64,000 bases of DNA from a virus. The notes under the pieces were generated by a model that saw only the letters and a program-made list of their open reading frames with translations, had not been told where the DNA came from and made no database searches. Every line of letters begins with the position of its first letter. Within the stretch, counting starts at the first letter, position 1. Both the position numbers and the translations under genes were made by a program. Positions 1 through 60,574 of this stretch are shown here, piece by piece. The stretch lies in the UHGV virus genome UHGV-1351279. One strand, written 5' to 3'.

Positions 1-14
1 AAATACAAGAAAGA

Positions 15-32
15 GTGTGGGTTCTCTTGTAA
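15..32 (-). promoter_or_regulatory. copy 1 of a conserved ~18-nt motif GTGTGGGTTCTCTTGTAA. It faces a leftward gene that lies beyond the window start.
   Basis: Near-identical copies at 705-725 and 1257-1275, each 30-60 nt upstream of a leftward start codon. Confidence 0.3.
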
Positions 33-37
33 TTTGA

Positions 38-101
38 GGGTTTTAGAATAAAACCCGAAAGGGCTTGAAAAGCCCTATAAAAGAGCTTCCTGAAAGGAAG
101 C
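38..101. other. three consecutive short GC-stem hairpins with tGAAA-type loops (38-56 GGGTTTT/AAAACCC; 61-75 GGGCT/AGCCC; 85-101 GCTTCC/GGAAGC)
   Basis: Inverted repeats read directly from the sequence. They are GC-rich islands in AT-rich DNA. Confidence 0.35.
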
Positions 102-116
102 AATAAAAGGGTTAAT

Positions 117-138
117 TATACCATATATATTATGGTAT
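117..138. repeat. AT-rich perfect palindrome TACCATATATATTATGGTA, copy 1
   Basis: Self-complementary sequence. A second near-identical copy lies at 242-266. Confidence 0.45.
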
Positions 139-241
139 AGATAAAAGGGGAAATAAGGCTGCTGAGTTGACACTTATTTCAGGGAAGAGAAACCTTTCTA
201 TTTAGTAGACACTTATTAGCCCCCTTTATAGATAAAAGGTT

Positions 242-266
242 TATACCATATAATATATATGGTATA
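242..266. repeat. palindrome TATACCATATAATATATATGGTATA, copy 2
   Basis: Same arms as 117-138, about 125 bp away. This is a candidate pair of protein-binding sites. Confidence 0.45.
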
Positions 267-272
267 AAAATA

Positions 273-293
273 AAAGGGGATTTCTCCCCTTTT
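273..293. terminator. hairpin AAAGGGGA-tttc-TCCCCTTTT with A/T runs on both sides. It is the likely terminator of the leftward 451-672 unit.
   Basis: An 8-bp GC stem, with a U-run following on the minus strand (TTTTATTTTTAT). Confidence 0.5.
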
Positions 294-405
294 ATAGTAG
301 TGAAGTCCATAGGTAAGCTGCTGTTATAACAAATATAACAGCTATTAATCCTATTAGTTCACCATAATTATCCTCATCAATAAAGGAGTTTAAGAACTTT
401 TTCAT
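292..405 (-). CDS. possible 37-aa small membrane peptide (MKKFLNSFIDEDNYGELIGLIAVIFVITAAYLWTSLL). It is absent from the ORF track because it is under 60 aa.
   Basis: Hand translation of the reverse strand from ATG 405 to TAA 292. It has a single hydrophobic helix and lies between the 73-aa gene and the hairpin. Confidence 0.15.
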   Translation of the reverse strand: MKKFLNSFIDEDNYGELIGLIAVIFVITAAYLWTSLL

Positions 406-450
406 GATAATAATATTTAAGAGTTAAACAATAAAGGAGAAGAATGAGCA

Positions 451-672
451 TTAAAGCCCATTCTTCTTTTGATGCCAATCAAAGTATTTATTCATACTTT
501 GATTAGTTTCAAGACCCCATAACATAAGGTGACAGAGTATTATACCTGTAAAAGTATAAAACTCAAAAGTATCACCTTTAGGGTCAAGAACACCTACTAA
601 TGCAATGAAGACAGTAAGTGACAACAATAAAATTGTTGATTTAACATTGAAAAAGGATTTCCAAAAGTTCAT
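451..672 (-). CDS. small membrane protein (two hydrophobic helices), function unknown
   Basis: ORF track, ATG at 672. The conserved motif lies 33 nt upstream. Confidence 0.4.
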   Translation of the reverse strand: MNFWKSFFNVKSTILLLSLTVFIALVGVLDPKGDTFEFYTFTGIILCHLMLWGLETNQSMNKYFDWHQKKNGL

Positions 673-704
673 GATGTATAGTATTTAAGTTAATTCAAGA
701 AGAT

Positions 705-725
705 GTGTGGGTTCTTATAAACCCA
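705..725 (-). promoter_or_regulatory. copy 2 of the conserved motif (GTGTGGGTTCTTATAAACCCA), 33 nt upstream of the 73-aa gene start
   Basis: Aligned by eye with copies at 15-32 and 1257-1275. Confidence 0.3.
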
Positions 726-779
726 TCTTTCTGAAAGAAAGATGAAGAAAGGACTTGAGAATCAAGTCCTTTCTATGAG

Positions 780-1196
780 TTAGAATGGATATTCTAACTC
801 TTGTTGTGTAGGCACCATAGATTTTGCCCAATCTCCACTAATTAACTCCTTTAAGAATGTAGACCTCTCAAACAAGTTAACGAGTTCTTTATCTAAAGCA
901 CAACTTAGCTTAGGTCTTATACCATATTCATATAAGGTGTATACAGCTTCATTTGTGCTTACTGCAATACTATAAAAGTTCCAATCTCCTTTTATCTTAT
1001 CAAGATAATGGCCATGGTCTTTTAGGTATTGTAGAGCAACAAGAACATTTGATGTAGAGTCAAGAGAACCTGATGCCAAAGATTCAGAGACAAACACATC
1101 AAAGTTGTGTACAAAACTTTTGAAAGAGTTGCACAAAGAATCTGCCTTAGCAGGTATGGAAGATTCAAAAGAAGAAATGATAACTTCAAGTTCCAT
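780..1196 (-). CDS. hypothetical protein (138 aa)
   Basis: ORF track. ATG at 1194-1196. Confidence 0.45.
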   Translation of the reverse strand: MELEVIISSFESSIPAKADSLCNSFKSFVHNFDVFVSESLASGSLDSTSNVLVALQYLKDHGHYLDKIKGDWNFYSIAVSTNEAVYTLYEYGIRPKLSCALDKELVNLFERSTFLKELISGDWAKSMVPTQQELEYPF

Positions 1197-1212
1197 GATG
1201 TAAGTAATTTAG

Positions 1213-1240
1213 TACTCCCCCAAATATGGGAGGGGGAGTT
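1213..1240. other. GC-rich hairpin ACTCCCCC...GGGGGAGT in the 5' leader of the 138-aa leftward gene
   Basis: 8-bp C/G stem read from the sequence, 17-44 nt upstream of the minus-strand ATG. Confidence 0.35.
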
Positions 1241-1256
1241 TGTTATTCCAGAATTA

Positions 1257-1275
1257 GTGGGGGGTCTCTTGTAAA
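1257..1275 (-). promoter_or_regulatory. copy 3 of the conserved motif (GTGGGGGGTCTCTTGTAAA), 61 nt upstream of the 138-aa gene
   Basis: Aligned by eye with copies 1 and 2. Confidence 0.3.
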
Positions 1276-1379
1276 TAGGCTCACATCTTTATTCTCACTC
1301 ACAAAATCAAAAAATTTCCAGAAAAATTTTTTACTTTACTTTGTCATGTGATATTTTTTTTGTATCTTTGCCCCTGACC

Positions 1380-2160
1380 ACCACTACTGTTCTAAAAGTG
1401 GGTTCAGATGTAGCAGTAAACTGAAGAGTTCAAGATACATTTTAGTTGGTATATAATCCTAAAGAAGGTGTTTTATGGTTACTATTAGGAAAGTAGCTGA
1501 GTAGCAATAAGGCATTACATATTGGATAAGAGAGCCATAGGTCACAAAGTTTGATAGGTTATATAGGTTAGGGGAAAGTTCCTTAATTTGATAAGCTTCG
1601 GGTTAAGCAATATATAACTGATAAGTTCAATAAATTTCAGTACTACACCGCAGAACAGGTAGTCCCTTGAGAAAGGATATGGTACATAGTTGTTAAATTA
1701 GCACTGGATTAGTTATGCAACGGAAAGGCTCATAGAAGTCACCTGAGAGAGCTACAGGACTAAACAGGTTTAGCAAGCCAAAGCGGGGAGGGAATTTAGT
1801 AGTTTAGTGTACATAGATGAATTTGCATGCTAAGGAATTAGTATTGTTACACTAAGGGCAAATATCTAAGAGTATTATTTAATAATATGTTTGATTAGAT
1901 TGTAACCGCCTGAAAAGATAAAGAGCTTCAAACACACTTCACCATAAATCAAATGGTAAGTCACTAAGAGATTCTTTTGTTCCACTTTTTATTATGAGGA
2001 TTAACAAGGGTTAATACGAGATTTTAAGAAGGTTTGGGAGCGCGAAGGGCCTCTTAGGGAGGACTTTTTTGAGCTCTTCGGAGCGTAAAAAGAAAAGTTC
2101 ATGAAATGAAGTTTGATTTACGCGCGAAGGGCAAAAAGTTACTTTCGCAGATATTGTATA
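1380..2160. other. ORF-free, locally GC-enriched divergent intergenic region. It is a candidate structured ncRNA and/or replication origin.
   Basis: No ORF of 60 aa or more in any frame. GC-rich stems include UUCG-loop hairpins (GCTC-TTCG-GAGC at 2072-2084). GCGCGAAGGGC is directly repeated at 2040-2050 and 2122-2132. Confidence 0.25.
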
Positions 2161-2204
2161 GAATACTGATTGTTTTGTTGTATATATAAATGGTTAATTT
2201 TCAA

Positions 2205-2229
2205 GTGTTTAGATTAAATATCTAAACAC
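2205..2229. promoter_or_regulatory. perfect 10-bp inverted repeat GTGTTTAGAT-taaat-ATCTAAACAC. It is a candidate operator just upstream of the first rightward gene.
   Basis: Perfect palindrome read from the sequence. It sits ~25 nt upstream of a TAATTTTG -7-like motif. Confidence 0.4.
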
Positions 2230-2252
2230 TTTTTTTATTGATTAAAGTTTTG

Positions 2253-2260
2253 TAATTTTG
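2253..2260 (+). promoter_or_regulatory. TAATTTTG. It matches the Bacteroidota -7 consensus TAnnTTTG, 21 nt upstream of ATG 2282.
   Basis: The motif match is seen in the sequence. This 8-mer is expected by chance several times in AT-rich DNA, so support is weak. Confidence 0.25.
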
Positions 2261-2281
2261 TAGCGTTAAAGTTAAATAGTG

Positions 2282-2644
2282 ATGAAGGTAATAAGTAAGA
2301 GTATTGTTTTAAGTGGTTCTTTATATTATAGGAGACACTTAGAGTTAATAAACCCTATGTTACCAAGAAGGTTAACAGAGGGGGAGATTAATGTTTTATC
2401 AGAGTTTATGTTTTTGAAAGGTTTAGAGGATAAGTTTGATAAGACAGGTAGAAAGGCTGTGATGGATAAATTAGGTTTAAGCTTTAGTAGTTTGACTAAT
2501 TATTTATCTTCTTTAAGGAAGAAAGGTTTTATCATTAAGAATGCAATTGATAGTTATGATATTGTACCTATTTTATTGAGTGATAATGATAAGATGGTTT
2601 ATAACTTTAAGATAGAGAATTATGAAGAACAGGATAAGAACTAA
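2282..2644 (+). CDS. small early protein with a probable helix-turn-helix (KLGLSFSSLTNYLSSLRKKGFI). The ORF-track start at 2279 is GTG, and ATG 2282 is preferred.
   Basis: ORF track. HTH-like segment read by eye. It is the first gene of the rightward block. Confidence 0.4.
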   Translation: MKVISKSIVLSGSLYYRRHLELINPMLPRRLTEGEINVLSEFMFLKGLEDKFDKTGRKAVMDKLGLSFSSLTNYLSSLRKKGFIIKNAIDSYDIVPILLSDNDKMVYNFKIENYEEQDKN

Positions 2645-3011
2645 TGGGGTACATAGGGAAAGGTCTTATAGTTCTAAGACTTTTGATTATGTAAAGGATT
2701 GTTATTTTAAGGTTATAAGGGATAAGTATGAAGGTTTAGATTTCTGTCATTTTGAGATGATGGTAAATAGCCTTTTTGAGTATGTAAGGGAGTGTTTGGA
2801 TAGTTATGATTTCAAGAAGATTTATTTACAAGGTTTTTGTTATATGAAGCCACAAGCAAGGAGGATAGAGCTTATGACAAAAAAGTTAGAAGAGTTTGTG
2901 GAGAACAATAAAGATTCATTTACAGAGGAGTCAAGAAAAAGATATTTAATACACATAGAAAAATGCAAGAACTTTTTAAAGAACCATCAAGAAGAGCAAG
3001 ACCAACAGTAA
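2622..3011 (+). CDS. hypothetical protein (129 aa)
   Basis: ORF track. Overlaps the upstream gene by 23 nt. Confidence 0.4.
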   Translation: MKNRIRTNGVHRERSYSSKTFDYVKDCYFKVIRDKYEGLDFCHFEMMVNSLFEYVRECLDSYDFKKIYLQGFCYMKPQARRIELMTKKLEEFVENNKDSFTEESRKRYLIHIEKCKNFLKNHQEEQDQQ

Positions 3012-3376
3012 GGAATATATTGTCTTATATACAAGGTAATATAAGGTATAGGTTATATTATAGCAAGAAGCTTTATGGTGTTGATTTAAGTTGGCTATTA
3101 CCTAAGTGGCTGAAAGAGCAGATTGAGCTTAGGATAGATAGTATGGATAGGGAATGTTATAATAATGGGAGTTGTAAGATATGTGGTTGTAAGACTACAG
3201 AGTTACAATTTGCAGATAAAGCATGTGATAAGCCTTGTTACCCTTTTATGTTGAGTAAGAAGCAATGGTATATTTTTTGTGATACAGGATTAGTTTTTGA
3301 TGCTAAGACAGACATGTTTTGGCAGAAGAGGAATAGTAAATTCACTCCTTTTAAGGGGGTTGGTAAAAAGATATAA
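2963..3376 (+). CDS. Cys-rich hypothetical protein (CxxC-type cluster CKICGCK...C...C), possibly zinc-binding
   Basis: ORF track. Cys spacing read by eye. Confidence 0.4.
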   Translation: MQELFKEPSRRARPTVRNILSYIQGNIRYRLYYSKKLYGVDLSWLLPKWLKEQIELRIDSMDRECYNNGSCKICGCKTTELQFADKACDKPCYPFMLSKKQWYIFCDTGLVFDAKTDMFWQKRNSKFTPFKGVGKKI

Positions 3377-3378
3377 CA

Positions 3379-3678
3379 ATGAGTAAATTTAAAGAACAAG
3401 AGATAGATTTAGGAGTAATTAAAAGTGGCAGTAATGTACTTTTTAATTATGAGAGTATAGAGGATATAAAGGATAAGATTTCTTATGTAGAACCTGGTTG
3501 TGGAGGTTGTACTAAGATATTAGGTTATGATAATAAGCTTTTGAAAGTAAAGTTTGTATCAGGTAGTTTTCCTGTGCATATAAATAATGATAGGTACAGT
3601 GTCACAAAAGTTATAAGGGTTTATTATAAAGATGGTACAGAGGAAGAATTGAAATATAAAGCAATAATTTTTAAATAA
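3379..3678 (+). CDS. hypothetical protein (99 aa)
   Basis: ORF track. Its stop overlaps the next start (TAATG). Confidence 0.45.
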   Translation: MSKFKEQEIDLGVIKSGSNVLFNYESIEDIKDKISYVEPGCGGCTKILGYDNKLLKVKFVSGSFPVHINNDRYSVTKVIRVYYKDGTEEELKYKAIIFK

Positions 3679-4247
3679 TGAAAAAGTATACAGATGAGCA
3701 ATTGCTTAACAAGGTTAAGTCTTTGCAAGGTTTTAAAGGTATTCCTGATGGATATTGGATATTAGGATTACAGAGTAAAGAAGATAAGTTCAATGAGTTT
3801 GATGATAAGTTTTACCTTTTTAAGGGAGAAAAATTTATCATGGTAACTACAGGAACTACTAATGCTGGTCTTACAGGTTTAAAGAATTATGATACTTATA
3901 ATTCTGAGGGTTGTGCTGTTATTAAAACAGATGAGTGGTATTATAAGCTTTGGACACCTGGATTACATAAAGGTAAGATGAGGGCTTTAAAGCAAGCCAA
4001 TAATATTAAGTATTACAGGGATTGGAATAAGAATGAGAAGGTTGAGGAGATTGGAAAGTTAAGAGAAGGTATTATTGGTATTAACTTTCACACAGCAAGT
4101 TATCAACCTTATAATGTTATTACAAGGCTTATAGGAGGTTGGAGTACAGGTTGTCAGGTAGTTAATAATACAGCTGATTACTATAAGATATTGGATTTTA
4201 TAGGTAATCAAAAAGAAGTAAGTTATTGTTTAATCAAAGAGTTTTAA
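3678..4247 (+). CDS. hypothetical protein with a His...Cys pair (INFHTAS ... GGWSTGCQV). This resembles an L,D-transpeptidase/YkuD-type catalytic signature, so it may be a cell-wall-active enzyme.
   Basis: ORF track. Motif resemblance only. Confidence 0.45.
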   Translation: MKKYTDEQLLNKVKSLQGFKGIPDGYWILGLQSKEDKFNEFDDKFYLFKGEKFIMVTTGTTNAGLTGLKNYDTYNSEGCAVIKTDEWYYKLWTPGLHKGKMRALKQANNIKYYRDWNKNEKVEEIGKLREGIIGINFHTASYQPYNVITRLIGGWSTGCQVVNNTADYYKILDFIGNQKEVSYCLIKEF

Positions 4248-4248
4248 T

Positions 4249-4455
4249 ATGAAAGTTATAGAAGTATTTGTAGTAAAGACCTATGACAAGGTAAGTTCTA
4301 AGGTTGAGTTTTTGTTTATTGACAGGAAAGACTACTTTATTGATTCAGTTCTTTATGAGGAGCTAAACAGAGTTTCTTATGCTGATGCTTGTAAGAAGTT
4401 CAAGCAGAAGAACCCTTTACCTGTTGATAGTGAGTATAAATTTATTATAAGTTAG
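4249..4455 (+). CDS. hypothetical protein (68 aa)
   Basis: ORF track. Tightly packed. Confidence 0.35.
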   Translation: MKVIEVFVVKTYDKVSSKVEFLFIDRKDYFIDSVLYEELNRVSYADACKKFKQKNPLPVDSEYKFIIS

Positions 4456-4457
4456 TT

Positions 4458-4826
4458 ATGGCATATATTATGATTAATGGCAATAAAGTATATTGGGAAG
4501 ATTATTTAGAGTTAGCTAAAAAGTTAAAAGAAATAGATGATTTACCTAAGATTGTATCTGGTACTGTAAGTTGGAGTAAAGATAAAAAAGAACTAAAAAC
4601 TGTAGATGGCTCTTCTGCTTTAGATAATAAGAAGAGAGAATATCCAAAGCATGTCTTGATTGAGAGAAGTGTTGTAAAAAATGTGTATGAGTTTAACTTT
4701 ATTGACTTAGAGACTAAAGAGTTTTATTGGAGCTTTTATAGTGACAGCTTAAATTACAATGTAGCTAAGAAAGCCTTTGAAGGTGTGTTTAAATATAAAG
4801 GAGTAAAATATTATTTAGAGGAGTAA
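4458..4826 (+). CDS. hypothetical protein (122 aa)
   Basis: ORF track. Confidence 0.45.
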   Translation: MAYIMINGNKVYWEDYLELAKKLKEIDDLPKIVSGTVSWSKDKKELKTVDGSSALDNKKREYPKHVLIERSVVKNVYEFNFIDLETKEFYWSFYSDSLNYNVAKKAFEGVFKYKGVKYYLEE

Positions 4827-5380
4827 TGGCATATTTATTTGTATTAGAGAATAACATAGCCAGACCACATCCTGAAACTGTTTTGATTGAACCTTTTAAG
4901 ACTATATGGGAGAGAGATACAAACAGAGATAAATCTAATGCAATCAGGGATTTTACCTTTATTGAACTTATGAGCAGTAAAAGGAAGACTAATCCTTATG
5001 CTGGATATAGTGATAAGCAAAGATTTGAAAAATTAAAGGAGATGCTTAAGTATCCAGCAAATTGGCAGCCTGATGATGAGATTAAGTTTGCTTTGTATAA
5101 GATAGAAGAGTTTCAGACAGAAGGGAGTTTTAACTATGTTATGTATAAACAGTCTTTAGAGACATTGATAAAGACACGAGAATACCTTTTAAATATTGAC
5201 CTTAATGAGAGAACTAAGTCAGGGATACCTGTATATAAACCAGCTGATGTGTATTCTGCTATTGAGAAAGTAGAAAAGATTATGACTTCACTAAATAACT
5301 TAAAAGAAAAGGTAGACCAGGAATTGTTTGACCAAACAAGGACAAGAGGTAATAAAACTATTAATCCATTAGAAAATTAA
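4826..5380 (+). CDS. hypothetical protein (184 aa). It is a positional candidate for a small terminase subunit.
   Basis: ORF track. The position upstream of the large terminase is the only argument. Confidence 0.45.
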   Translation: MAYLFVLENNIARPHPETVLIEPFKTIWERDTNRDKSNAIRDFTFIELMSSKRKTNPYAGYSDKQRFEKLKEMLKYPANWQPDDEIKFALYKIEEFQTEGSFNYVMYKQSLETLIKTREYLLNIDLNERTKSGIPVYKPADVYSAIEKVEKIMTSLNNLKEKVDQELFDQTRTRGNKTINPLEN

Positions 5381-5381
5381 T

Positions 5382-5594
5382 ATGAAAAGAACAGCAAAAG
5401 AAATAGATAACTTTAAAGAATTTAAACAAGAATATTTTGATTATAATGAGTTTCTAATAAAAGGTAATAAGGATAAGCTTAAATCTTTTTATGATGAGGG
5501 TGTAAAGTTACATTTTATTAGAGAGGTTGTAGATTTGAAATTTCCTATAACTATAGTTGGTAACAGAACAATTCATTTTGAATTAGATGAGTAA
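5382..5594 (+). CDS. hypothetical protein (70 aa)
   Basis: ORF track. Overlaps the next gene by 8 nt. Confidence 0.35.
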   Translation: MKRTAKEIDNFKEFKQEYFDYNEFLIKGNKDKLKSFYDEGVKLHFIREVVDLKFPITIVGNRTIHFELDE

Positions 5595-7779
5595 GATTAG
5601 AGATAATAATGGTAGATGGAAAGATACTTCTGTGTTTAGACAAGAAGCCATAAGGTTTCTTGAGAAAGGCTATTACACAGAAGCTCCTTATGGTACTCCT
5701 GAGTGGCTTGAATATTGGAAAGAGCAACTCAGGAGGTGCATAGAGGGTTATGAGGTATATGGAGAAAAAATTACAGGACATCACTATTGTTATCTCAACT
5801 TTGCTCAGATATTAAAAATGAAGTTTGATGATGAAGATGAAGAAGAGACATTAGCTACAAAAGAGGTTAGTTTTCCAGACTTTTGGGATGGTGATTATAA
5901 TTTCTTCTGGTCATTAGAAATAGCAAGGAATGGTATATGTTCCTCAATGACTCAAGTTCCGAGTAGGCCTAATGAAAGAAAAGAGTGGAATGAGCTTAAT
6001 AAGAAACTAAAGAAGTTAGAAACTGACAATGAAGAGTATGATAAGGTAAAAAAGAAAAGGGATAATATATCTCAAAAGATACTTGATAGATTAGGTTTAT
6101 TTGTAAAACCTCACTTAGATTACCTTAATGGAGGTTACCACTTTGTAGTAGGTAAAGCACGTCGTAGAGGTTATTCTTATAAGACATCTCTTATAATAGC
6201 TAATATATACAATACTATAAGGAATAAACTTTCTTTAATAGGTGCTTATGAAAAGAAGTTCATTGACCAAACAATGGATAAAACATTAGAGTATTTGAAC
6301 TTCTTTAATGAGTATACAGGCTTTTCTAAGAACAGATTAGTTGATAAGAAGAACTTTATAAAAGCTGGCTATATAGAAGAGGTTAATGGGGTTAATGTAG
6401 AAAAAGGTTATAAATCTGTAATTGATGCTACAAGAACTTTTAAAGATAATCCTGATGCCATGCGTGGTGTGGATGCCTTTTTTATATTACTTGAAGAGGT
6501 TGGTGCTTTTGATAATCTAAAAGACTCTTTTAATGCTATTGCACCTTCACTTACAGCAGGTAGTAAGATTACAGGACAGATATGTTTGATTGGTACTTCA
6601 GGAGACCTTTTAGGGGGTACTAAGGATTATGCTGATATGTTTTTTAATCCTATACCCTATGGATTTATGCCTTTTATAAATATATGGGATAAAGATGCTG
6701 AGGATACTACTTGTGGCTTTTTTCACCCTATTAGTTGGAATCTTGAAGGTTTCTATGATGAGCAAGGTAATTCTGATATAGAAGCTGCTACAATTTGGGA
6801 AAACCAAAGAAGAAAAAAACTTTTGGATAATTCTACAAATAGCTTAATTTTGCAGAAGCATATTCAAGAGTTTCCTTTATGTCCTGCTGATGCTTTTAGT
6901 ATGGCAAATATTAATGTATTTCCTACTGTAGAGCTAAGAAACAGGCTTAATAAAGTAATGTCAGGAAACTTGCATTTAAAGATGGGAACTCCTGTAGAAC
7001 TCTTTTTTGAAGAAGGTAAGGTAGTAGCTAAACCAGATTTAAAGAATAAATTACAACCTATATGGAATTACAGACCTAAAGATAATAATTTAGAGGGTTG
7101 TCCTATAATATATGAATATCCTATAAAATCAGCACCAAAGGGTCTCTATAAAATAGGGTTTGACCCATATAGACAAGATTTATCTAATGGTGTTTCTTTG
7201 GGGGCCATATATGTCTTTAAAGGAGTACATAAAGGTAGTATGACTAAGAATTGTATAGTAGCTCAATATGTAGGAAGACCTCAAGAAAGTGATGATGTAT
7301 CAAGGATAGCCATGATGTTTGCTATATTATATAATACAGAAGTTATGTTTGAGAATGAGGTAACTCATGTAAAGAACTACTTTAGGAGAATGAATAGGCT
7401 TGATTTATTAGCTTTACAGCCTGATAGGGTAATTTCTAATAATATAAAAAACTCAAAGGTAGCTCGTGTGTATGGTTGTCACATGAATGAAAAGATGAAA
7501 GATGCTGGAGAGAAGTATATAAAGGATTGGTTACTTGAAGTACAAGAATATGATGAGAATGGTAATCCAATAACTACAATAGATTCTATATATGATATAG
7601 GATTATTAGAGGAGTTAATAGCTTATAACAGAAAGGTAAATGTTGACAGAGTCATGGCATTAATGCAAGTAATGTTTCAAAGACAGGAAGAACAACTTGA
7701 CAAGGTTTATGATGAGGATAGAAAAGATAGGATAGCAGAGGTTTTTGAAGTATTAAAAGGTTTTTATAGAAAAAGATAA
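5587..7779 (+). CDS. terminase large subunit (ATPase plus RNase H-like nuclease)
   Basis: Deviant Walker A VVGKARRRGYSYKTS (K-x-R-R-x-G-x-S type, as in lambda gpA-like terminases). Nuclease-domain signature KIGFDPYRQD (GhDP...D). 730 aa, immediately upstream of the portal. Confidence 0.5.
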   Translation: MSKIRDNNGRWKDTSVFRQEAIRFLEKGYYTEAPYGTPEWLEYWKEQLRRCIEGYEVYGEKITGHHYCYLNFAQILKMKFDDEDEEETLATKEVSFPDFWDGDYNFFWSLEIARNGICSSMTQVPSRPNERKEWNELNKKLKKLETDNEEYDKVKKKRDNISQKILDRLGLFVKPHLDYLNGGYHFVVGKARRRGYSYKTSLIIANIYNTIRNKLSLIGAYEKKFIDQTMDKTLEYLNFFNEYTGFSKNRLVDKKNFIKAGYIEEVNGVNVEKGYKSVIDATRTFKDNPDAMRGVDAFFILLEEVGAFDNLKDSFNAIAPSLTAGSKITGQICLIGTSGDLLGGTKDYADMFFNPIPYGFMPFINIWDKDAEDTTCGFFHPISWNLEGFYDEQGNSDIEAATIWENQRRKKLLDNSTNSLILQKHIQEFPLCPADAFSMANINVFPTVELRNRLNKVMSGNLHLKMGTPVELFFEEGKVVAKPDLKNKLQPIWNYRPKDNNLEGCPIIYEYPIKSAPKGLYKIGFDPYRQDLSNGVSLGAIYVFKGVHKGSMTKNCIVAQYVGRPQESDDVSRIAMMFAILYNTEVMFENEVTHVKNYFRRMNRLDLLALQPDRVISNNIKNSKVARVYGCHMNEKMKDAGEKYIKDWLLEVQEYDENGNPITTIDSIYDIGLLEELIAYNRKVNVDRVMALMQVMFQRQEEQLDKVYDEDRKDRIAEVFEVLKGFYRKR

Positions 7780-7781
7780 CT

Positions 7782-10202
7782 ATGGATAAAAAGAGATTAT
7801 CAAGAGCGCAAAAGGAAGCTAATGATTTTGCATGGTTTAAAGAACAAATAGATTTATATGATAGGTCTTCTTTTTCTTCTTCAAGATTTGATGGTCAAGA
7901 TGGCATTGTTTCTGAGTGGAGAAAAATGAAGATTAACTATGATTTATTTAATAACAGAATTAATGCAAAAGACTTTGAGTATGTATGTCAGCCTTATGGT
8001 GAGAGTGTAGGAAAACTACCATTAGATTTTACTAACAAAGATATTTTATCTGGAAAGATAAAAGCTATGTTAGGTATGGAAATGAGAAGACCTTTTTCCT
8101 GGAAAGTAGTTGCTGTTAATGAAGAAGCTACTACAAGAAGGGAACAAGAGGAGTTTGAGCAAATTAAACAGTTTGTAATAAATAGTATTACAGCTCCTAT
8201 AAGGCAACAATTAGAGCTTGAACAGATGCAACAAGCTCAAGGTAGAGAACTTACTGAAGAGGAGAAACAACAAATGCAACAACAGATAGAAGAGGAGATG
8301 AAAACAAGAACTCCTCCTGAAGTTGGTTTGTATATGGAAAGAGAGCATCAAGACCCAGCAGAGATATTATCTCATCAGATATTAGAATATTTGATGGAAG
8401 AGCAAAATATCAGAGAGAAATTCAATAGAGCATGGAAGCATGGTCTTATAAGTGGTAAAGAGATATTTTGGGTTGGAGAAGTTAATGGTAAACCTATGGT
8501 AAAGGTAATAAACCCTTTAAGGTTTGACTATGATAGAAACTCAGATAACCATTATATAGAAGAAGGTGAGTGGGGTTGTTATGAGATGTATTTAACTCCT
8601 TCACAGATTATAAGCCACTTTGGAGATGAGCTTACTGAAAAACAGATTGATGATATTTATAGTAACTTTCAAGAAGGTGCTGTAGTTAATTCTGAATTTA
8701 CCTTTAGAGATGAGTATTTTGAAGCTTATGGAGTAAGGGTAATACATTGTGAGTGGAAAGCACCAAAGGCTGTAAAATTTGTATCTGGAGTGGATTTAGA
8801 GACAGGAGAGCCTTATGAGTTCTTAGTTGATGAGACCTACCAAATAAATAGGGAAGCTGGAGATTTAGAGGTTATAAAGAAATGGATACCTTCTAAATTT
8901 GAAGGCTATAAAATAGGTAAAGACATTTATGTAGGTATGAGAGAAGTACCAGGTCAAAATAAAGATTTGGATAATCTCTATAATTGTAGGCTTTCTTATA
9001 TAGGTGCTTGTTATGATAATATGAACTCTGAAAGTACTTCTTTAGTAGATAGAATGAAGTACTATCAATACATGTATAATATATTAATGTATAAGATAGA
9101 GCTTTTGATTTCTTCTGATGAAGGAAAAACCCTTTTATTGGATGGTAGTATCATACCTAAATCAGCAGGTATTAAGACAGAGGAATGGATTTATGACTTT
9201 AAGGTAAATAAATTAGGTATAGTAAATTCTAATGAGGAAGGTAGCAGATACAATGATATTACTCAATCTGTAAAAGAGATTGACTTATCTCTAATGTCTG
9301 ATATACAAAAGTACATAGAATTAGCAGAATATGTAGAAAGGAGATGTGGTGAATCTGTAGGTATTACAAAACAAATAGAAGGACAAATTGGAGGTAATGA
9401 AGCTGTAAGAAATACTCAACAAGCAATTATACAATCAGCTAATATATTAGAACCTTATTTTGAGGTTCATAGTATAGTTAAGAAGAATGTATTACAATCT
9501 CTTATTGAGGTAGCTAAAGTAGCTTATTTGACTTACCAACCATCACATTTAAACTATGTTCTTGATGATATGTCAAGAAAGATGGTCACTATGGATTATG
9601 ACCTTTTAGAGAATAGTACTTATGGTGTGTTTGTAAATAATAGTACTAAGGCTGATGAAGCTCTACAGATGGTACAACAACTCTCTCATGCAGCTATGCA
9701 AAATCAAACTATTGAGATGTCTGATTTGATTAAGGTAATGAGAAGTCAATCTATACCTGAAGCTGAAGAACTCCTTAAAAGAGCTGAAAAAGAAAGAAGA
9801 GAGTTTATGCAACAGCAACAACAGCAAGAACAACAAGCTCAACAAGAGTTACAGCAAGCTCAACAGCAATTTGAGAAAGACCTTAAATATATGGAACACC
9901 AATTTAAGATGGAAGAGATTGAGAAGAAAGGTGAGCTTGATATACAGAAGCAAGCTATACTTTCTATTGGGTTTAATGAAGATAAAGACCTTGATAAAGA
10001 TGGTGTACCAGATGTTCTTGAAGTTGCTAAGTTCGGTGTAGATGCTAATGTAAAAGCTGAAAACATAAAACTACAAAGAGAGAAGTTAGATTATCAAAAA
10101 GAGAAAGATAGAAAACAAGAAAAACTAATGGAAAGAAAACTTGATATTGAGGATAAAAAAGCACAATCTCAAGTACTAAAAGCTAAAGTTAGTGCTAATT
10201 AA
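7782..10202 (+). CDS. portal protein (806 aa) with a Q-rich coiled-coil C-terminal region
   Basis: Size and position directly after the terminase. Low-complexity QQQQQQEQQAQQELQQAQQQ at ~9810-9870. No motif-level proof. Confidence 0.4.
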   Translation: MDKKRLSRAQKEANDFAWFKEQIDLYDRSSFSSSRFDGQDGIVSEWRKMKINYDLFNNRINAKDFEYVCQPYGESVGKLPLDFTNKDILSGKIKAMLGMEMRRPFSWKVVAVNEEATTRREQEEFEQIKQFVINSITAPIRQQLELEQMQQAQGRELTEEEKQQMQQQIEEEMKTRTPPEVGLYMEREHQDPAEILSHQILEYLMEEQNIREKFNRAWKHGLISGKEIFWVGEVNGKPMVKVINPLRFDYDRNSDNHYIEEGEWGCYEMYLTPSQIISHFGDELTEKQIDDIYSNFQEGAVVNSEFTFRDEYFEAYGVRVIHCEWKAPKAVKFVSGVDLETGEPYEFLVDETYQINREAGDLEVIKKWIPSKFEGYKIGKDIYVGMREVPGQNKDLDNLYNCRLSYIGACYDNMNSESTSLVDRMKYYQYMYNILMYKIELLISSDEGKTLLLDGSIIPKSAGIKTEEWIYDFKVNKLGIVNSNEEGSRYNDITQSVKEIDLSLMSDIQKYIELAEYVERRCGESVGITKQIEGQIGGNEAVRNTQQAIIQSANILEPYFEVHSIVKKNVLQSLIEVAKVAYLTYQPSHLNYVLDDMSRKMVTMDYDLLENSTYGVFVNNSTKADEALQMVQQLSHAAMQNQTIEMSDLIKVMRSQSIPEAEELLKRAEKERREFMQQQQQQEQQAQQELQQAQQQFEKDLKYMEHQFKMEEIEKKGELDIQKQAILSIGFNEDKDLDKDGVPDVLEVAKFGVDANVKAENIKLQREKLDYQKEKDRKQEKLMERKLDIEDKKAQSQVLKAKVSAN

Positions 10203-10262
10203 GCTATTAGCTTTAACACCCTGAAAATTAAATTTTCAAAATGTAATATATAAATTAATTAT

Positions 10263-10270
10263 TAATTTTG
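10263..10270 (+). promoter_or_regulatory. TAATTTTG -7-like motif in the 76-bp gap before the scaffold/capsid genes, only 8 nt from the ATG
   Basis: Seen in the sequence. The very short leader makes this call weak. Confidence 0.2.
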
Positions 10271-10278
10271 CAGAGAAT

Positions 10279-11337
10279 ATGGAACAAGTTTTAGAACAAG
10301 ACAATGAGCTTTTAAGCTTTAAGTGGGATACAGTAGAAGAAGAACAACCTACTGTTGAAGAGCCAAAGGAAGAACCTAAAGAAGAGCCTAAAAAAGAAGT
10401 AGAAAAAGAACCAGAGTTTACTTTTGAAACTCCTAAGACAGAAGATGGTAAAGAGATTGTTGATAAAAAAGATAATGAACCTGTAGATAGTATCTACAAT
10501 GATTTGTTTAAAGATTTGAAAGAGAACAACATCTTTAATCATGTAGAATTGGAAGAAGGAGAAGAACTTACAGCAGAAAGATTTTTCCAATTACAAGAAG
10601 AAGAATATGAAGCTGAGGTTAGAGAAAGGATTGATAATTGGGCTAAGAACATTGATGAAGATGGTAGGAAATATCTTAAATTCCTTTCTGATGGAGGTAA
10701 AACAAAAGACTTCTTAGAAGTATTTGTAAATACAGAAGAACCTTTAGAAGGTGATATTAATGATGAAGAATATCAAGATGACCTTATCAGGGAAAAGAAA
10801 CTCTCAGAAGGTTTCTCAAGAGATGAAACAGAGGAATATCTTTCTAACTTACCTAAAACAGTCAAAAGAAAAGAAGCTACTCTTTATAAAGAGAATATTC
10901 AAGAGACTGTTGAGAAAAGGAAGAAACAACTCTTAGAAGAGCAAGAAAGAGCTAAGCAAAGACAAGCTGAGGAGTTACAACAATTTAATGAAAATATAAA
11001 AGGTATCTTAGAGAACCAAAAAGAAGTTGGAGGATTTAAAATCACTGAAAAGGATAAAACTAATATTTATAACTTCTTAACTCGTAGGGACCAGAAAGTA
11101 AATGATAAAGTAGTTGTAACAGGGTTCCAAAAAAAACTTGCAGAGGTCTTTAAAGATACTAATAAGTTAGTAGTGCTTGCTAAGCTACTTCACAATGACT
11201 TTGATTTATCTCAAATAGAGAAACAGATTATAACTAAAGAAACTAAGAAAATAAAATCTAATTTAGAGAATCGTAAAACAATTTCCTCATCTTCTGGAAG
11301 TTCTTATAAGGAAAAACAGTTCTATGATTTATTCTAA
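10279..11337 (+). CDS. scaffolding-like acidic protein (EEPKEEPKEEPKKE repeats, charged coiled-coil character)
   Basis: Composition and position between the portal and the capsid gene. Confidence 0.4.
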   Translation: MEQVLEQDNELLSFKWDTVEEEQPTVEEPKEEPKEEPKKEVEKEPEFTFETPKTEDGKEIVDKKDNEPVDSIYNDLFKDLKENNIFNHVELEEGEELTAERFFQLQEEEYEAEVRERIDNWAKNIDEDGRKYLKFLSDGGKTKDFLEVFVNTEEPLEGDINDEEYQDDLIREKKLSEGFSRDETEEYLSNLPKTVKRKEATLYKENIQETVEKRKKQLLEEQERAKQRQAEELQQFNENIKGILENQKEVGGFKITEKDKTNIYNFLTRRDQKVNDKVVVTGFQKKLAEVFKDTNKLVVLAKLLHNDFDLSQIEKQIITKETKKIKSNLENRKTISSSSGSSYKEKQFYDLF

Positions 11338-11354
11338 TTAAATCTTGAAATAAT

Positions 11355-12824
11355 ATGATAAATAACAACAAATTCATTACATCAATACTACCTTGGGATG
11401 GTGGTACTATGGTTGAGTTGAATAACTTGGGTAAAGCCTTGATGATTCAACCTGAGAAATTTGGAGATAAAATGTCTCAACTTTTCTCCTCTCAGAACTA
11501 CTACTCTGACAACCCAATTTCAAGTATTGCTTTGAAGAATGGTGCTAAGAAGATTGTAACTTCTAATGAGTGGGAATGGAAACTTTCTACTTCTAATACT
11601 GCACCTACTACTGTAGTAGAAGACTTGGAGAAAACTAATGATAAACCAGGTCTTGGAAGGACTACCTTTAAAATTAAACTACGTGATAATTGGTTCAAAT
11701 CTACTGATGTTATTACACCAGGTACTGCTGACCAAAAATATCAGTGTAGAATCATGGAAGAACCACAGAGACATGGTACTAATGGTTGGGTTTATACTGT
11801 TCGTATTGTATCTGATGACTTTAGTACATTCTTACCAAAGATGTTCCTAAAAGCAGGTACTAAATGGGCTAAGCTTTACTCAACTGCTGGTGAAGCTGAC
11901 ATCAAAGGTGGTTCTACTCAATTCTCTGCTCCTATTACTCTAAAGAACTCTTTGGGTAAATTGCGTAAAGAATACCATGTAACTGACTATGCTCTTGAAC
12001 AAGTTCTTGCTGTAAAGCTACCTACTCAAACAGGTAAACTTGCTGACTTCTGGATTAACTATGCTGAAGTTGAGTATTGGAAACAATGGTATCGTGAAAT
12101 TGAGCGTGCTTATTGGTATAATAGGAAAGCTAAGAGTATTCAAACTGATGCAGGTAGACCTGTAGATTCTTTTGCAGGTATCTTTGAACAGCTTGAATCA
12201 GCTAATAACCATTATTATACTGACCTTACAGCAGAGCTTATTGAGAACTTTATGATGGATATTTTCTATGCTCGTGTTAAACCTGGAAAAGGTCGCAGCA
12301 TGAAAGTATTTACAGGTGAGTATGGTATGCTTATTTTCTCTCGTGCTATGCAAGACCTTATGGAGAAAAGGGGTTGGAGAATTGCCAATAACAACTTTAA
12401 TCCTGTACAGAAGACTTCATCTGAATACAACACAAATGCTTATTCTTATGGATACCAATTTGTGAAGTATATCATGCACAATGGAGCTGAGCTTGAACTT
12501 GTACACTTGCCACTTCTTGATGATATTAATATCAACATGGAGATTGACCCAATTTCAGGATACCCTGTACAATCTCAGAGATTCATTTTCTTGGATTTCT
12601 CTGGAACAGGAACTGAAAGCAATATCCAAATTGTAGAGAAGAAAAATGGTTATAAGTTTGGTTATGTATCAGGTTTGGTTGGACCTTTTGGACCTGTGAA
12701 TGGAGGTCAAATGGCTCACTCTGGAGAATACTACTCAATGCATGTATCTAAAGAATTAGGTATTCACATTGAAGATACTTCTAAATGTGGACAATTAATT
12801 TTGAAGCGTAATTTTGGTTACTAA
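11355..12824 (+). CDS. major capsid protein candidate (489 aa)
   Basis: Position after the scaffold. Codon usage differs from its neighbours (frequent CGT/CGC Arg, CTT, GGT, ACT). A 13-bp-stem hairpin follows immediately. Confidence 0.5.
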   Translation: MINNNKFITSILPWDGGTMVELNNLGKALMIQPEKFGDKMSQLFSSQNYYSDNPISSIALKNGAKKIVTSNEWEWKLSTSNTAPTTVVEDLEKTNDKPGLGRTTFKIKLRDNWFKSTDVITPGTADQKYQCRIMEEPQRHGTNGWVYTVRIVSDDFSTFLPKMFLKAGTKWAKLYSTAGEADIKGGSTQFSAPITLKNSLGKLRKEYHVTDYALEQVLAVKLPTQTGKLADFWINYAEVEYWKQWYREIERAYWYNRKAKSIQTDAGRPVDSFAGIFEQLESANNHYYTDLTAELIENFMMDIFYARVKPGKGRSMKVFTGEYGMLIFSRAMQDLMEKRGWRIANNNFNPVQKTSSEYNTNAYSYGYQFVKYIMHNGAELELVHLPLLDDININMEIDPISGYPVQSQRFIFLDFSGTGTESNIQIVEKKNGYKFGYVSGLVGPFGPVNGGQMAHSGEYYSMHVSKELGIHIEDTSKCGQLILKRNFGY

Positions 12825-12855
12825 TCAGATTTTTTTCTCATATAATTATTAACTC

Positions 12856-12887
12856 AAACATGGGGTTATTGGTTTAACCCCATGTTT
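12856..12887 (+). terminator. strong hairpin AAACATGGGGTTA-ttggtt-TAACCCCATGTTT after the capsid gene
   Basis: 13-bp perfect stem read from the sequence. The trailing U-run is short. Confidence 0.4.
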
Positions 12888-12904
12888 CTAAAAAAGTAAA
12901 AACA

Positions 12905-13699
12905 ATGGCATTAGTTGAAGTTAGACCTATTGAAAAAGACACTTGGCACGGTAAAAGTGGTGCTGAGAATTTTACAAGACCACAAGTAATTTCTTGTGCT
13001 GTCAATGCTCATACAGGATTGTATGATACAGGATTATCTGAAGAAGATAGAAAAAGGCTTGAGAAAGCTACAGGATTTGATTTAAGTGATAATTATAATC
13101 CTAATGAGAAACACCCTTTTTGGTCAAAACCTATTAGTGAGGTAAAGCTTGAATGGGGTTCAAATATTTTTAATGTTGAAAGACCTTTAGATGAAATTAA
13201 GGTAAAGATGCTTAAAGCTTCTGATTTAGTAGCAAATTCAATGCAAGATTACAATGAAGGTAAATACCCTTTAGCTTTATTTGTAATTACAGATGAGCAA
13301 GAGCAAACAGTTGTAAAAGCTGCAAAAGCTGCTATTAAAAGAAATGCTATTATTGAAGCTTCTAAACTTTCTACAGAGAAAAAGATTGAAGCTGTATATA
13401 TTCTCTTAGGTCAAAATGTAAGAGGAAACTCTAATGACTATATAGACCTTAAAGTAGATGAAGCTATTGATAAAGCAGGGGCAGAAGCTTTCCTAAATCT
13501 TATTAGTAGAGAGGGTGCTAAGAACACAATTCAAGCATTTATTTTAGAAGCTACTGATAAAGGTATTCTAACAAGAACAGGAACTTCATATAGCTATATG
13601 GATATTCATCTTGGAGGAGATATTGAAGATGCTATTAGCTTCTTTGAGAATAAAAAGAATCAGCCTTTAAGGATTCAAATAATGGAAAAACTAAGGTAA
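12905..13699 (+). CDS. hypothetical virion protein (264 aa)
   Basis: ORF track. Lies within the morphogenesis block. Confidence 0.45.
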   Translation: MALVEVRPIEKDTWHGKSGAENFTRPQVISCAVNAHTGLYDTGLSEEDRKRLEKATGFDLSDNYNPNEKHPFWSKPISEVKLEWGSNIFNVERPLDEIKVKMLKASDLVANSMQDYNEGKYPLALFVITDEQEQTVVKAAKAAIKRNAIIEASKLSTEKKIEAVYILLGQNVRGNSNDYIDLKVDEAIDKAGAEAFLNLISREGAKNTIQAFILEATDKGILTRTGTSYSYMDIHLGGDIEDAISFFENKKNQPLRIQIMEKLR

Positions 13700-14419: not shown

Positions 14420-15532
14420 ATGTCAAGAACAAGTGATGTATTTAGACTTTTGGTTACAGCTAATAACAAAGATGTATTAGCTAAGAACAAAAAGCTTACT
14501 GACTTAGTACCTGGTCAATTAGGTGTGTTTGATGCTTCAACACATCTCTCTATTGACACCACTGTAACCCCTGTACCAGCAGAGTATTATTTTGCTGTTG
14601 GTGTAGATAATGATGGTGATGGTGTTGTTGATGATATTGTAAAATCAACAGGTAATGAAATTCAAAAGAAAGGAGTATTTTATTACAACTATACAAAATA
14701 TTCAGCAGGCAAGCCAGCAAAAGTGATTTTAAAGGATTATTTTGCTCAAGCTAATAAAGTATATGGTATTAGGGTTACTCTTCAAAATCAAGCCACTTTA
14801 CAGCTTCAGGGGTATGTTCCTTACTCTGAAACCTATGTTGTAAAGAATGTAATTTGTGATAACTGTGCAGACCCTTGTGTAAAAGGTGATAGTATTCAAG
14901 TTACTAAAAAGCTTCTTTTACAAATCAACAATGATAACAATGCTTTTGTAGTAGCTAAAGCAGTAGCAAGACAAGCTCTTACTACAGGTACTCATGGTAT
15001 TACTAAAGCTATTGGAGATGCACTTACTATTGAAGATTTGGACAAGATGGCTACTTACAATAAAACTCAAACTAACCCAGCTAACTTTGTACATGCTGAT
15101 ATTGAGTTTGAGACTAAGCCACTAAAGAAAATCTTTGATACTTGTATCAACATTGGTTACATGATTTCTCGTGAAACTACTATTGACATTTCACTTCCTG
15201 TAGGATTTGATTGTGATGGTAAAGTTGAAGTGAAGCAAGAAGCTGAGTATGAGCAAGGAGCTGGATATGACTTGAAACAACTTGAGTATATCCAAAAAGG
15301 TTGGACAGAAACTCCTTATAGGACTTCTGCTATTACAGGATTACCTTTCCCAACAGCTTATAGTATAGACCCTAAAGGTAAGTATGATACTTTTGTATAT
15401 ACTTATGATGAGACTACTTATACAAGCTTTAATAACTATACTTTCCAGGAAAGTTCAGTTATAGCTGTACCAACAGCAGACACAACTACAGTAGCTAAGG
15501 TTAAGGCTATTTTGGAATATTTAAAAGGTTAA
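14420..15532 (+). CDS. abundant structural protein candidate (370 aa), such as a major tail/tube or second capsid-shell protein
   Basis: High-expression-type codon usage like the capsid gene. A canonical stem plus T6 terminator follows. Confidence 0.45.
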   Translation: MSRTSDVFRLLVTANNKDVLAKNKKLTDLVPGQLGVFDASTHLSIDTTVTPVPAEYYFAVGVDNDGDGVVDDIVKSTGNEIQKKGVFYYNYTKYSAGKPAKVILKDYFAQANKVYGIRVTLQNQATLQLQGYVPYSETYVVKNVICDNCADPCVKGDSIQVTKKLLLQINNDNNAFVVAKAVARQALTTGTHGITKAIGDALTIEDLDKMATYNKTQTNPANFVHADIEFETKPLKKIFDTCINIGYMISRETTIDISLPVGFDCDGKVEVKQEAEYEQGAGYDLKQLEYIQKGWTETPYRTSAITGLPFPTAYSIDPKGKYDTFVYTYDETTYTSFNNYTFQESSVIAVPTADTTTVAKVKAILEYLKG

Positions 15533-60543: not shown

Positions 60544-60574
60544 ATAAATATTAATTAAGTTTATAAATAAAAAA

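Follow-up and report, generated by a model that had tools for sequence, protein, structure and literature searches.

A conserved C-rich element ahead of the first leftward genes of a crAss-like phage and its probable role as an early promoter

The stretch of DNA analysed here, hereafter the window, comprises 64,000 nucleotides (64 kb; GC = 30.6%) of the virus genome UHGV-1351279, and its left end carries several copies of a short element with a C-rich core. Leftward genes are found at both window ends. Positions 1-1300 are the beginning of the leftward arm and adjoin a divergent junction; the rightward arm begins at 2279, and its rightward block runs from the gene for the terminase large subunit (TerL) through portal, capsid, tail and muzzle proteins to an open reading frame (ORF) of 4508 amino acids (aa) at 34670-48196. 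Among annotated genomes, the closest are those of Fpv1/Fpv2/FPSV, phages of Flavobacterium psychrophilum whose TerL is ~51% identical to that of the window. A near-identity nucleotide search with window positions 1-8000 gave 0 matches among 50,697 phage records, and relatives were obtained from IMG/VR contigs and by TerL protein search. The leftward end of the window holds the following features, with motif copies named as in relatives.

2-35, minus strand: motif copy B, core GTGTGGGTT at 15-23; leftward sense TTACAAGAG-AACCCACAC-TCTTTCTTG
85-101, minus strand: terminator-like hairpin GCTTCCTTTCAGGAAGC with T-rich tail, in the hairpin-rich spacer 36-272, upstream of copy B
270-295, minus strand: intrinsic-terminator-like hairpin with T-run, closing the copy-C unit
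292-405, minus strand: 37-aa ORF, distal in the copy-C unit and including a hydrophobic segment; flanked by the 451-672 gene and the 270-295 hairpin
438-467, minus strand: terminator-like hairpin overlapping the 3′ end of the 73-aa gene
451-672, minus strand: 73-aa gene with a hydrophobic stretch, no recognised family
692-725, minus strand: motif copy C, core at 705-713; leftward sense TTTATAAG-AACCCACAC-ATCTTCTTG
746-774, minus strand: terminator-like hairpin of 13 bp with T-rich tail, closing the copy-D unit, ~20 nt upstream of copy C
780-1196, minus strand: 138-aa gene, no recognised family, the first leftward gene
1213-1241, minus strand: second C-rich box with 8-bp hairpin, between copy D and the ATG; leftward sense AAACTCCCCCTCCC
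1244-1277, minus strand: motif copy D, nearest the divergent junction, core GTGGGGGGT at 1257-1265; leftward sense TTACAAGAG-ACCCCCCAC-TAATTCTGG

The three copies, at 2-35, 692-725 and 1244-1277, are on the same strand, measure ~30 nucleotides (nt) each and have no counterpart elsewhere in the 64 kb. A repeat finder set the unit at 30-34 nt, with 3-32, 693-722 and 1245-1274 at 100, 70 and 80% identity. A sequence-only reading of this DNA had described the repeat as an 18-mer present three times. That holds for two of the copies: the 18-mer GTGKGGGTYCTCTTGTAA matches 15-32 with 0 mismatches and 1257-1274 with 1 mismatch, and these are its only 2 matches in 64 kb at up to 3 mismatches (0.10 expected from shuffles). 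The copy at 705-725 is not matched at this threshold; it has only the first 11 nt (GTGTGGGTTCT) in common with the others, after which TATAAACCC replaces CTTGTAA. What all three copies share is a 9-nt core, GTGnGGG[G/T]T, at 15-23, 705-713 and 1257-1265. This core occurs 3 times on the plus strand of the window and 0 times on the minus strand, with a first-order Markov expectation of 0.54. The count alone has P~0.02, and the confinement of three cores to 1.25 kb of the 64 kb has P~1e-3. The statistics of the window alone are modest, and it is the comparison with relatives that makes the repeat convincing. Taken together, clustering, strand bias and conservation in relatives rule out chance, as the sequence-only reading had maintained.

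In the leftward sense the core reads A[A/C]CCCnCAC and is followed by a T-rich stretch of ~8 nt ending in a conserved G, GTGnGGG[G/T]T being the template (opposite) strand of this C-rich box. Copy D is the most widely conserved variant, ACCCCCCAC-TAATTTTTG. The junction-proximal copy consists in most lineages of tandem C-rich boxes, in direct orientation and 26-29 nt apart; the box at 1213-1241 corresponds to the second box (TACCCCCACC) of this tandem in other lineages and has diverged in the window to CTCCCCCTCCC, forming a leader hairpin. Copy B in relatives is the upstream half of a tandem pair, with a further copy, A, 59 nt to its left. Copy A falls outside the window because the window begins inside the flank of copy B; its presence in this genome is suggested by relative L203, which has the same B flank and the A-B pair, and by other relatives. 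Copies in the window lineage are spaced by 59, 552 and 690 nt.

Conservation of the element reaches well beyond close relatives. IMG/VR relatives at 96-97% TerL identity have 3-4 copies (D, C, B and A), matching those of the window in position and strand, and no further copy was found in ~90% of a relative's genome, assembled from fetched stretches. The motif precedes only the first 3-4 leftward units, and the claim that it stands upstream of each leftward gene did not hold. The core of copy C varies among close relatives (GTGAGGGTT in L203, AGTGAAGGTT in L011, AATGTGGGTT in L007 and L012), and the variants in the clade are AACCCACAC, ACCCCCCAC, TACCCTCAC and AAAACCCTCAC, plus a repeat of a different type in L098. 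A motif search over the 64 kb, over ~90% of a relative's genome and over Fpv1 confined the copies to the early leftward region. In the 88,994 nt of Fpv1 (51% TerL identity) the core is present exactly 5 times, always on one strand and within 3.3 kb around the divergent junction, at spacings of 117-2,390 nt (0.37 expected; P=4e-5).

A TerL profile yielded 80 loci with 49-97% TerL identity, in which the core occurs 47 times on the TerL strand vs 3 times on the opposite strand, nearly always 3-9 kb upstream of TerL. Among the 42 loci with enough upstream flank, a weight-matrix scan with the extended element gave 95 leftward-sense matches vs 1 opposite, in 31 loci and at 3-8.7 kb upstream of TerL in all but 2 cases, a count that is partly circular, the matrix having been trained on some of the scanned loci, and that to this extent weakens the case made below. 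The strand bias and the matches in untrained loci lie outside this circularity. Over loci with 54-97% TerL identity to the window the element is conserved at 3-5 copies per genome, with the clade consensus, in the leftward sense, ..tcaA-[A/T]ACCC[T/C/A]CAC-T[T/A]ATTTTTG.

The element bears the marks of a phage-specific sequence, as had been proposed for it: position, strand and core are kept across this crAss-like clade down to ~50% TerL identity, and it is not over-represented in bacteria. The composite 18-mer WACCCYCACTWATTTTTG gave 93 single matches in 596 Gb of bacterial genomes, scattered over all phyla at about chance level. No bacterial genome among them held a cluster of copies, and 4 of the 93 stretches contained a second, loose core match. 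With chance-level single matches only in these genomes, a host-type promoter class was rejected. The motif is also absent from the early regions of phi14:2 and crAss001, phages of related hosts, and it tracks the phage lineage and not the host lineage, the host of phi14:2 being another member of the Flavobacteriaceae. Within the wider set of relatives, L067 has a possible weaker variant, AACCTAC, in four copies in the equivalent region, a 7-mer that occurs also elsewhere and on both strands. The lineage of L098 (50% TerL identity; also L096 and L104) is without the C-rich motif. L098 has instead, in the equivalent part of its genome (4013-7437), a leftward element of ~45 nt, TTTTGTTCTTCnTnTTTAACTnnnnCTTAGTTTTGACA, repeated 5-6 times at a distance of 27-35 nt from the ATGs that follow; this element has the form TTTTGTTCTTC..TTTAACT....CTTAGTTTTGACA.

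The copies stand in a regular order with terminators and start codons. There are 8 minus-strand terminator-like hairpins in 2.4 kb vs 1.3 expected, and every copy comes after a minus-strand hairpin with T-run, relatives and Fpv1 being arranged alike. The hairpin with U-run placed by the sequence-only reading at 273-293 was recovered as the terminator-like structure at 270-295 on the minus strand, and the promoter-gene-terminator layout in leftward orientation is supported. The distance of 30-60 nt to a minus-strand start given there was reproduced for copy C (32 nt, from 705 to the ATG at 672) and copy D (60 nt, from 1257 to the ATG at 1196). Behind the B+A tandem pair of relatives, the ATG of a 164-167-aa gene follows 79 nt after A. 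More generally, most copies lie 24-80 nt ahead of a minus-strand ATG (24-44 nt in many other lineages), the exceptions being the upstream member of a tandem and copies facing long unannotated stretches. The gap between terminator and motif is too short for another promoter, no canonical sigma-A promoter or TAnnTTTG was found between motif and ATG, and a sigma-70-style hexamer scan showed no excess of sites over shuffled sequence. Searches of the served genes against Pfam and PHROGs gave no match, and the 167-aa gene had only six close relatives, none of them named, in a set of 5.8 billion proteins.

We consider it highly probable that the motif copies are leftward promoters for some RNA polymerase (RNAP). 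We favour leftward early promoters because of the orientation and position of the copies, the order terminator-motif-ATG, the restriction to the first units and the deep conservation; the repeat with its strand, position and conservation is a direct observation, as are the terminators and the nearby ATGs. The copies would be the promoters of the first three or four leftward, and by their position earliest, transcription units. Each would be a composite element read from the minus strand, in which a clade-specific C-rich box abuts a T-rich stretch ending in G. Transcription would start at the conserved G or a few bases past it, run leftward through a short leader, cover one small gene lacking known relatives and end at an intrinsic-type hairpin terminator. 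Copy D would serve the 138-aa gene, copy C the 73-aa and 37-aa genes, and the B+A tandem the 164-167-aa gene just outside the window.

The only phage RNAP detected is a crAss-type virion enzyme, so that the sequence-only reading was right in so far as such a polymerase is encoded.

34670-48196, plus strand: virion protein of 4508 aa and the candidate for the enzyme acting in trans; its residues 2657-3530 align to the phi14:2 RNAP gp66

In this alignment DYDID at 3165 stands opposite the catalytic DFDID, within RIP..S..L.VVG.LPEA.GD.IV...G.DYDIDK, and the C-terminus of the giant ORF aligns to phi14:2 gp65 (blastp against gp66/gp65, E=2e-23 at database size 5e7). The homology is drawn from the blastp alignment to gp66, because a PDB sequence search with the giant ORF gave no match. 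By homology, the RNAP of the giant ORF is probably packaged. We hypothesise that the C-rich box is the specificity element of this virion-delivered two-barrel RNAP, which would fire the units as the DNA enters the cell, ahead of any phage protein synthesis. That the copies are early leftward promoters read by the virion RNAP we hold to have a substantial chance of being correct, though one somewhat short of even. We put forward more tentatively the proposal that the box with its T-rich tail is the first sequence-specific promoter identified for a crAss-type two-barrel virion RNAP, defining a 'pre-early' class at the leading end of the genome in the Fpv1-like clade.

Several observations point towards the virion enzyme. 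Gp66 of phi14:2 makes the rifampicin-resistant early transcripts (bioRxiv 10.1101/2020.03.07.982082). In P23-45 the pre-early genes, which are close to one end of the genome, carry a strongly conserved motif that is used by a related two-barrel virion RNAP (PMC10770324). The crAss001 genome has terminal repeats, and a small set of early genes is found at one of its ends. The genome analysed here seems to hold two promoter classes, because its canonical TTTG/TAnnTTTG promoters, at 1340-1370, 2253, 10263 and 19374, are AT-rich where the early elements have the C-rich box. Against this stand, besides the partial circularity of the matrix count, a number of points. Early transcripts of phi14:2 have no common upstream motif, and purified gp66 is active only on single-stranded or denatured DNA; it did not transcribe double-stranded M13 DNA and transcribed native phi14:2 DNA weakly (bioRxiv 10.1101/2020.03.07.982082). 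A sequence-specific double-stranded promoter for a crAss-type enzyme is without experimental precedent. After the core the clade consensus continues with T-TATTTTTG; this is a Bacteroidetes sigma-A -7 box without a mismatch, and its distance from the core is fixed. The sister lineage L098 carries at the same places its different repeat with TTTG...TAGTTTTG. Terminators made of a hairpin with U-run are a requirement of bacterial RNAP. Promoter activity we infer, as we do the start site and the identity of the polymerase, and that these last two have to be inferred also counts against the proposal. Assignment to the virion RNAP accordingly has to stay provisional, because the clade consensus has a TAnnTTTG-like box.

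That box also makes host sigma-A a serious rival, because it lies at a fixed distance in the clade consensus. The sequence-only reading had seen no resemblance to TAnnTTTG, which is true of the core; the clade consensus at +10..+17 is nonetheless TATTTTTG. On this account the copies are early promoters of the host sigma-A RNAP, the T-rich box is the -7 element, and the C-rich box is a phage 'extended -7' or spacer element that replaces the -33 TTTG; the holoenzyme would transcribe the units as soon as the DNA has entered, in the manner of the T7 A1-A3 promoters. The TAnnTTTG-like box at +10..+17 after the core is perfect in 10 of 69 distinct sites vs 0.1% in controls, and 28 of the 69 match at least 5 of 6 positions vs 2.6% in controls. 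Copy C of L010 carries the same TATCTTTG as the canonical rightward promoter at 1363-1370, the TTTG...TAGTTTTG repeats of the L098 lineage sit at equivalent sites, the units close with intrinsic terminators, and the phi14:2 virion-RNAP transcripts share no motif. However, the -33 TTG is not conserved, with an information content below 0.3 bit at the expected place, and the -7-like box is decayed, with 3-5 of 6 positions matching in the copies of the window and 3-4 of 6 in each of the 5 Fpv1 copies, the core being intact in both. The usual Bacteroidetes spacer from TTTG to TA is 19-21 nt; that of L098, at 22 nt, is outside this range, and that of the 1340-1370 promoter is 19 nt. Moreover, the composite is not enriched in bacterial genomes, the canonical promoters of the same genome lack the C-rich box, and the motif follows the phage lineage, being absent from phi14:2, which has another Flavobacteriaceae member as host. 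We regard promoters read by the host enzyme as somewhat less likely than the virion reading, but as a serious possibility. Promoters served by either polymerase would also be compatible with an operator, in which a phage protein, for example the winged-helix protein of 2279-2644, binds the C-rich core and shuts off or activates early promoters whose promoter proper is the T-rich box. A conserved asymmetric box that directly abuts a -7-like box would suit this, as would the two C-rich boxes, 26-29 nt apart, of the junction-proximal element. The winged-helix gene is present in 49 clade loci including Fpv1 and was not detected in phi14:2; its co-occurrence does not discriminate, because the gene is also in lineages without the motif (L046/L067, L096/L098/L104). 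There is no conserved dyad symmetry, which a dimeric helix-turn-helix operator needs, and the strict single orientation and fixed distance to the T-rich box and G are more typical of an element recognised by a polymerase. An operator box is in our view improbable.

All readings other than virion RNAP, host RNAP and operator share between them a still slimmer chance. One is a signal at the RNA level, in which the motif is part of a terminator for the virion RNAP or a processing site in one long leftward transcript. Each copy does lie just downstream of a hairpin, and the pre-early genes of P23-45 have a conserved 26-nt non-hairpin terminator motif for the virion RNAP (PMC10770324). Yet there is no leftward gene upstream of copy D to terminate, and the copies sit after and not before a complete hairpin with T-run, most of them 24-80 nt from the next ATG with no other promoter between. 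Single-strand structure is inconsistent: copy D and one Fpv1 copy have z-scores of +1.3 to +1.5, and the other three folded Fpv1 copies weak values between -0.7 and +0.7. We consider an RNA signal very improbable. Hardly credible at all is a role of the copies at the divergent junction as iterons of a replication origin, as a site of packaging or as a signal for DNA entry. The copies cluster by the arm junction and its ~1-kb non-coding region, but their spacing is long and irregular (59-2,400 nt), each has an intergenic gap to itself and is placed in a fixed manner relative to a terminator and mostly also to an ATG, and a far better candidate for iterons exists in L006 at ~14,850-14,940, where there are three tandem palindromes AACTTATGGTnAnCATAAGT. 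These palindromes lie upstream of a 193-aa winged-helix-like gene and beside the family-A DNA polymerase (PolA), and are a candidate replication origin or initiator-binding site.

Other promoter types were considered and rejected. A T7-like promoter was ruled out, no T7-like single-subunit RNAP gene having been found: Pfam RNA_pol/RPOL_N matched none of 24 large and mid-size ORFs of the window and relatives, a search that a very divergent enzyme could escape, and the relatives' leftward arm has no ORF of at least 600 aa except PolA, with ten mid-size ORFs giving no RNAP or sigma match. The element is like T7/T3/SP6 promoters in being long, asymmetric and highly conserved without needing a -35/-10 pair. 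The Fpv1 form AAAACCCTCACTTATT has AACCCTCACT in common with the T3 promoter AATTAACCCTCACTAAAGGGAGA. The spacing from CAC to the conserved G is 8 nt here vs 4 in T3, and the resemblance is probably coincidental. By eye, sigma-54 was ruled out by the lack of GG/GC dinucleotides at -24/-12, and extracytoplasmic-function (ECF) sigma by the lack of CGT ~16 nt after AAC. A known RNA family was ruled out as well, Rfam having given only sub-threshold noise for positions 1-2400.

An N4-type hairpin promoter was also ruled out, as no DNA fold is consistent over the copies: a modest hairpin forms in copy C alone, against 0 kcal/mol (z +1.3) in copy D and 0 to -2 kcal/mol (z -0.7 to +1.5) in the Fpv1 copies. 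An N4 promoter is a hairpin of DNA, its stem 5-7 bp long and its loop 3 nt. Coliphage N4 is nevertheless a relevant comparison: it has a giant RNAP packaged in the virion, and the small number of promoters for this enzyme cluster where the early region begins. Its enzyme is T7-like, whereas the enzyme here is two-barrel, and a consistent hairpin is missing here. The transcription programme of Crassvirales is said to be broadly N4-like (PMC10136315). A close parallel in arrangement is P23-45, whose virion-delivered two-barrel RNAP gp96 is related to the crAss enzyme: there too a conserved motif lies upstream of start sites, by the first genes at one genome end only, the units are short with dedicated terminators, and the motif is common to relatives having the virion RNAP (PMC10770324). 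The P23-45 motif differs in its AT-rich, unrelated sequence; ChIP-seq and ONT-cappable-seq support its role, that of the present element being predicted, and the P23-45 terminators have a conserved 26-nt motif where ordinary hairpins with T-run occur here (PMC10770324). Phi14:2 has a homologous virion RNAP, the same two-arm layout, and small genes with long non-coding stretches in the first part of its early arm (bioRxiv 10.1101/2020.03.07.982082), but no common motif upstream of its early transcripts, and the present motif is absent from its early region. Bacteroidetes sigma-A promoters (-33 TTTG / -7 TAnnTTTG) resemble the element in the TAnnTTTG-like box that its clade consensus has at a fixed distance, with an ATG shortly after; the element differs in having no -33 element, a C-rich box in the spacer, and a -7 box that is degenerate in the window and Fpv1.

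Conserved early promoters of phages are already known; what is new is the C-rich box fused to a -7-like box in a crAss-like clade. We found no paper describing promoters for a crAss-type virion RNAP, literature searches with motif strings gave no relevant paper, and the word 'promoters' does not occur in a 2023 review of Crassvirales. At the start of crAss-like phage gene expression, the virion RNAP is known structurally and no promoter is defined. The element is compact, strongly conserved and strictly oriented, and stands at the first early units of a whole clade. Because this clade includes cultured F. psychrophilum phages (Fpv/FPSV), the question of recognition by the virion RNAP is directly testable. 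If recognition by the virion RNAP is true, the element would supply the template that was missing when phi14:2 gp66 failed on double-stranded DNA in vitro. If the host enzyme reads the elements instead, they would represent a new upstream element in Bacteroidetes promoters, and the phages would not depend on the virion RNAP to express the genes that come first.

The boundaries formed by promoters and terminators are, in addition, the sites at which fast-evolving early genes are exchanged. In relative L010 an unrelated 107-aa gene replaces the 73-aa gene within the same regulatory boundaries, and the 138-aa gene is 42-46% identical in genomes with 97% TerL identity and wholly replaced in L203. 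A blastn mosaic has the segments 152-668 and 783-1158 swapped in L010 and L203 between conserved boundaries, and the flanking segments with motif and terminator are 85-96% identical where TerL is 97% identical. The same contrast is seen when window 1-1400 is compared with L010, L011, L012 and L203, where gene bodies are unalignable or unrelated, or 42-46% identical as protein. This looks like cassette-like shuffling of early genes at regulatory boundaries, a pattern that early genes for host takeover or anti-defence typically show. The promoter-early stem-loop (PeSL) cassettes of T4-type phages are comparable: in them promoter and hairpin boundaries flank small swapped early genes. PeSL promoters are sigma-70 early promoters, and recombination at the boundaries is deduced here from the mosaic pattern only.

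Further structure surrounds copy B. The spacer 36-272, between the copy-C terminator and copy B, is dense in short hairpins, several with GAAA-type loops, and holds two TTATACCATATA-type palindromes; it is indel-variable among close relatives, L203 lacking ~90 nt. In L010 an 11-bp hairpin, CTTGTATTTCC...GGAAATACAAG, separates copies B and A at 4818-4850, immediately beyond the left end of the window, and the 126 nt at 4765-4890 that contain it fold with z=-4.6 vs shuffles. This hairpin could be a leader structure or attenuator for copy-B transcripts.

On the other side of copy D, the junction region and the start of the rightward arm hold the following features.

1340-1370, plus strand: promoter of Bacteroidetes canonical type pointing rightward, away from copy D; TTTG at 1340-1343, 19-nt spacer, TATCTTTG at 1363-1370
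2203-2231, plus strand: hairpin with T-run, a terminator in the non-coding stretch
2279-2644, plus strand: winged-helix protein gene (phrog_16323; weak HTH_45 and MCM_C matches), the first rightward gene
5587-7779, plus strand: TerL gene, start of the rightward block

Upstream of its -7 box, the promoter at 1340-1370 is AT-rich and without the C-rich core. The region 1300-2280 has ~1 kb without any ORF longer than 36 aa and is 85-94% conserved in close relatives, above the neighbouring early genes. It is a candidate for a rightward non-coding RNA of ~850 nt, which recalls phi14:2, whose early arm begins with long non-coding RNAs of high abundance. Rfam gave 0 matches for this stretch; no known RNA family reached the gathering level in the window, matches to 1-2400 at E<=1 being sub-threshold noise, and a tRNA search found none.

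Some minor observations concern the rest of the window and its relatives. Several of the contigs at 96-97% TerL identity have names that begin with 7000000, an IMG sample-number series presumably of the Human Microbiome Project. In L011 and L012 the TerL match at 10001-13276 (equivalent to window 5587-7779) spans 3276 nt vs 2190 nt, and a ~1.1-kb insertion in the terminase gene (intron, intein or homing-endonuclease gene) is therefore suggested. A perfect -7 box, TAATTTTG, lies at 10263-10281, before a gene of 352 aa at 10279; because this box is 8 nt before the ATG, the late mRNA of the gene would be nearly leaderless. Directly after the virion RNAP ORF, and within the rightward block of very large ORFs, is a 1800-aa ORF (48190-53592) with DUF7831 and a PIF1/AAA_30 helicase domain. 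A distinct 523-aa helicase of that type is encoded leftward at 61675-63246; relative contig 161775 has a second copy of it, 44% identical. At the far window end, the leftward gene at 59773-60597 encodes a Bro-N + KilAC (antirepressor-type) protein.

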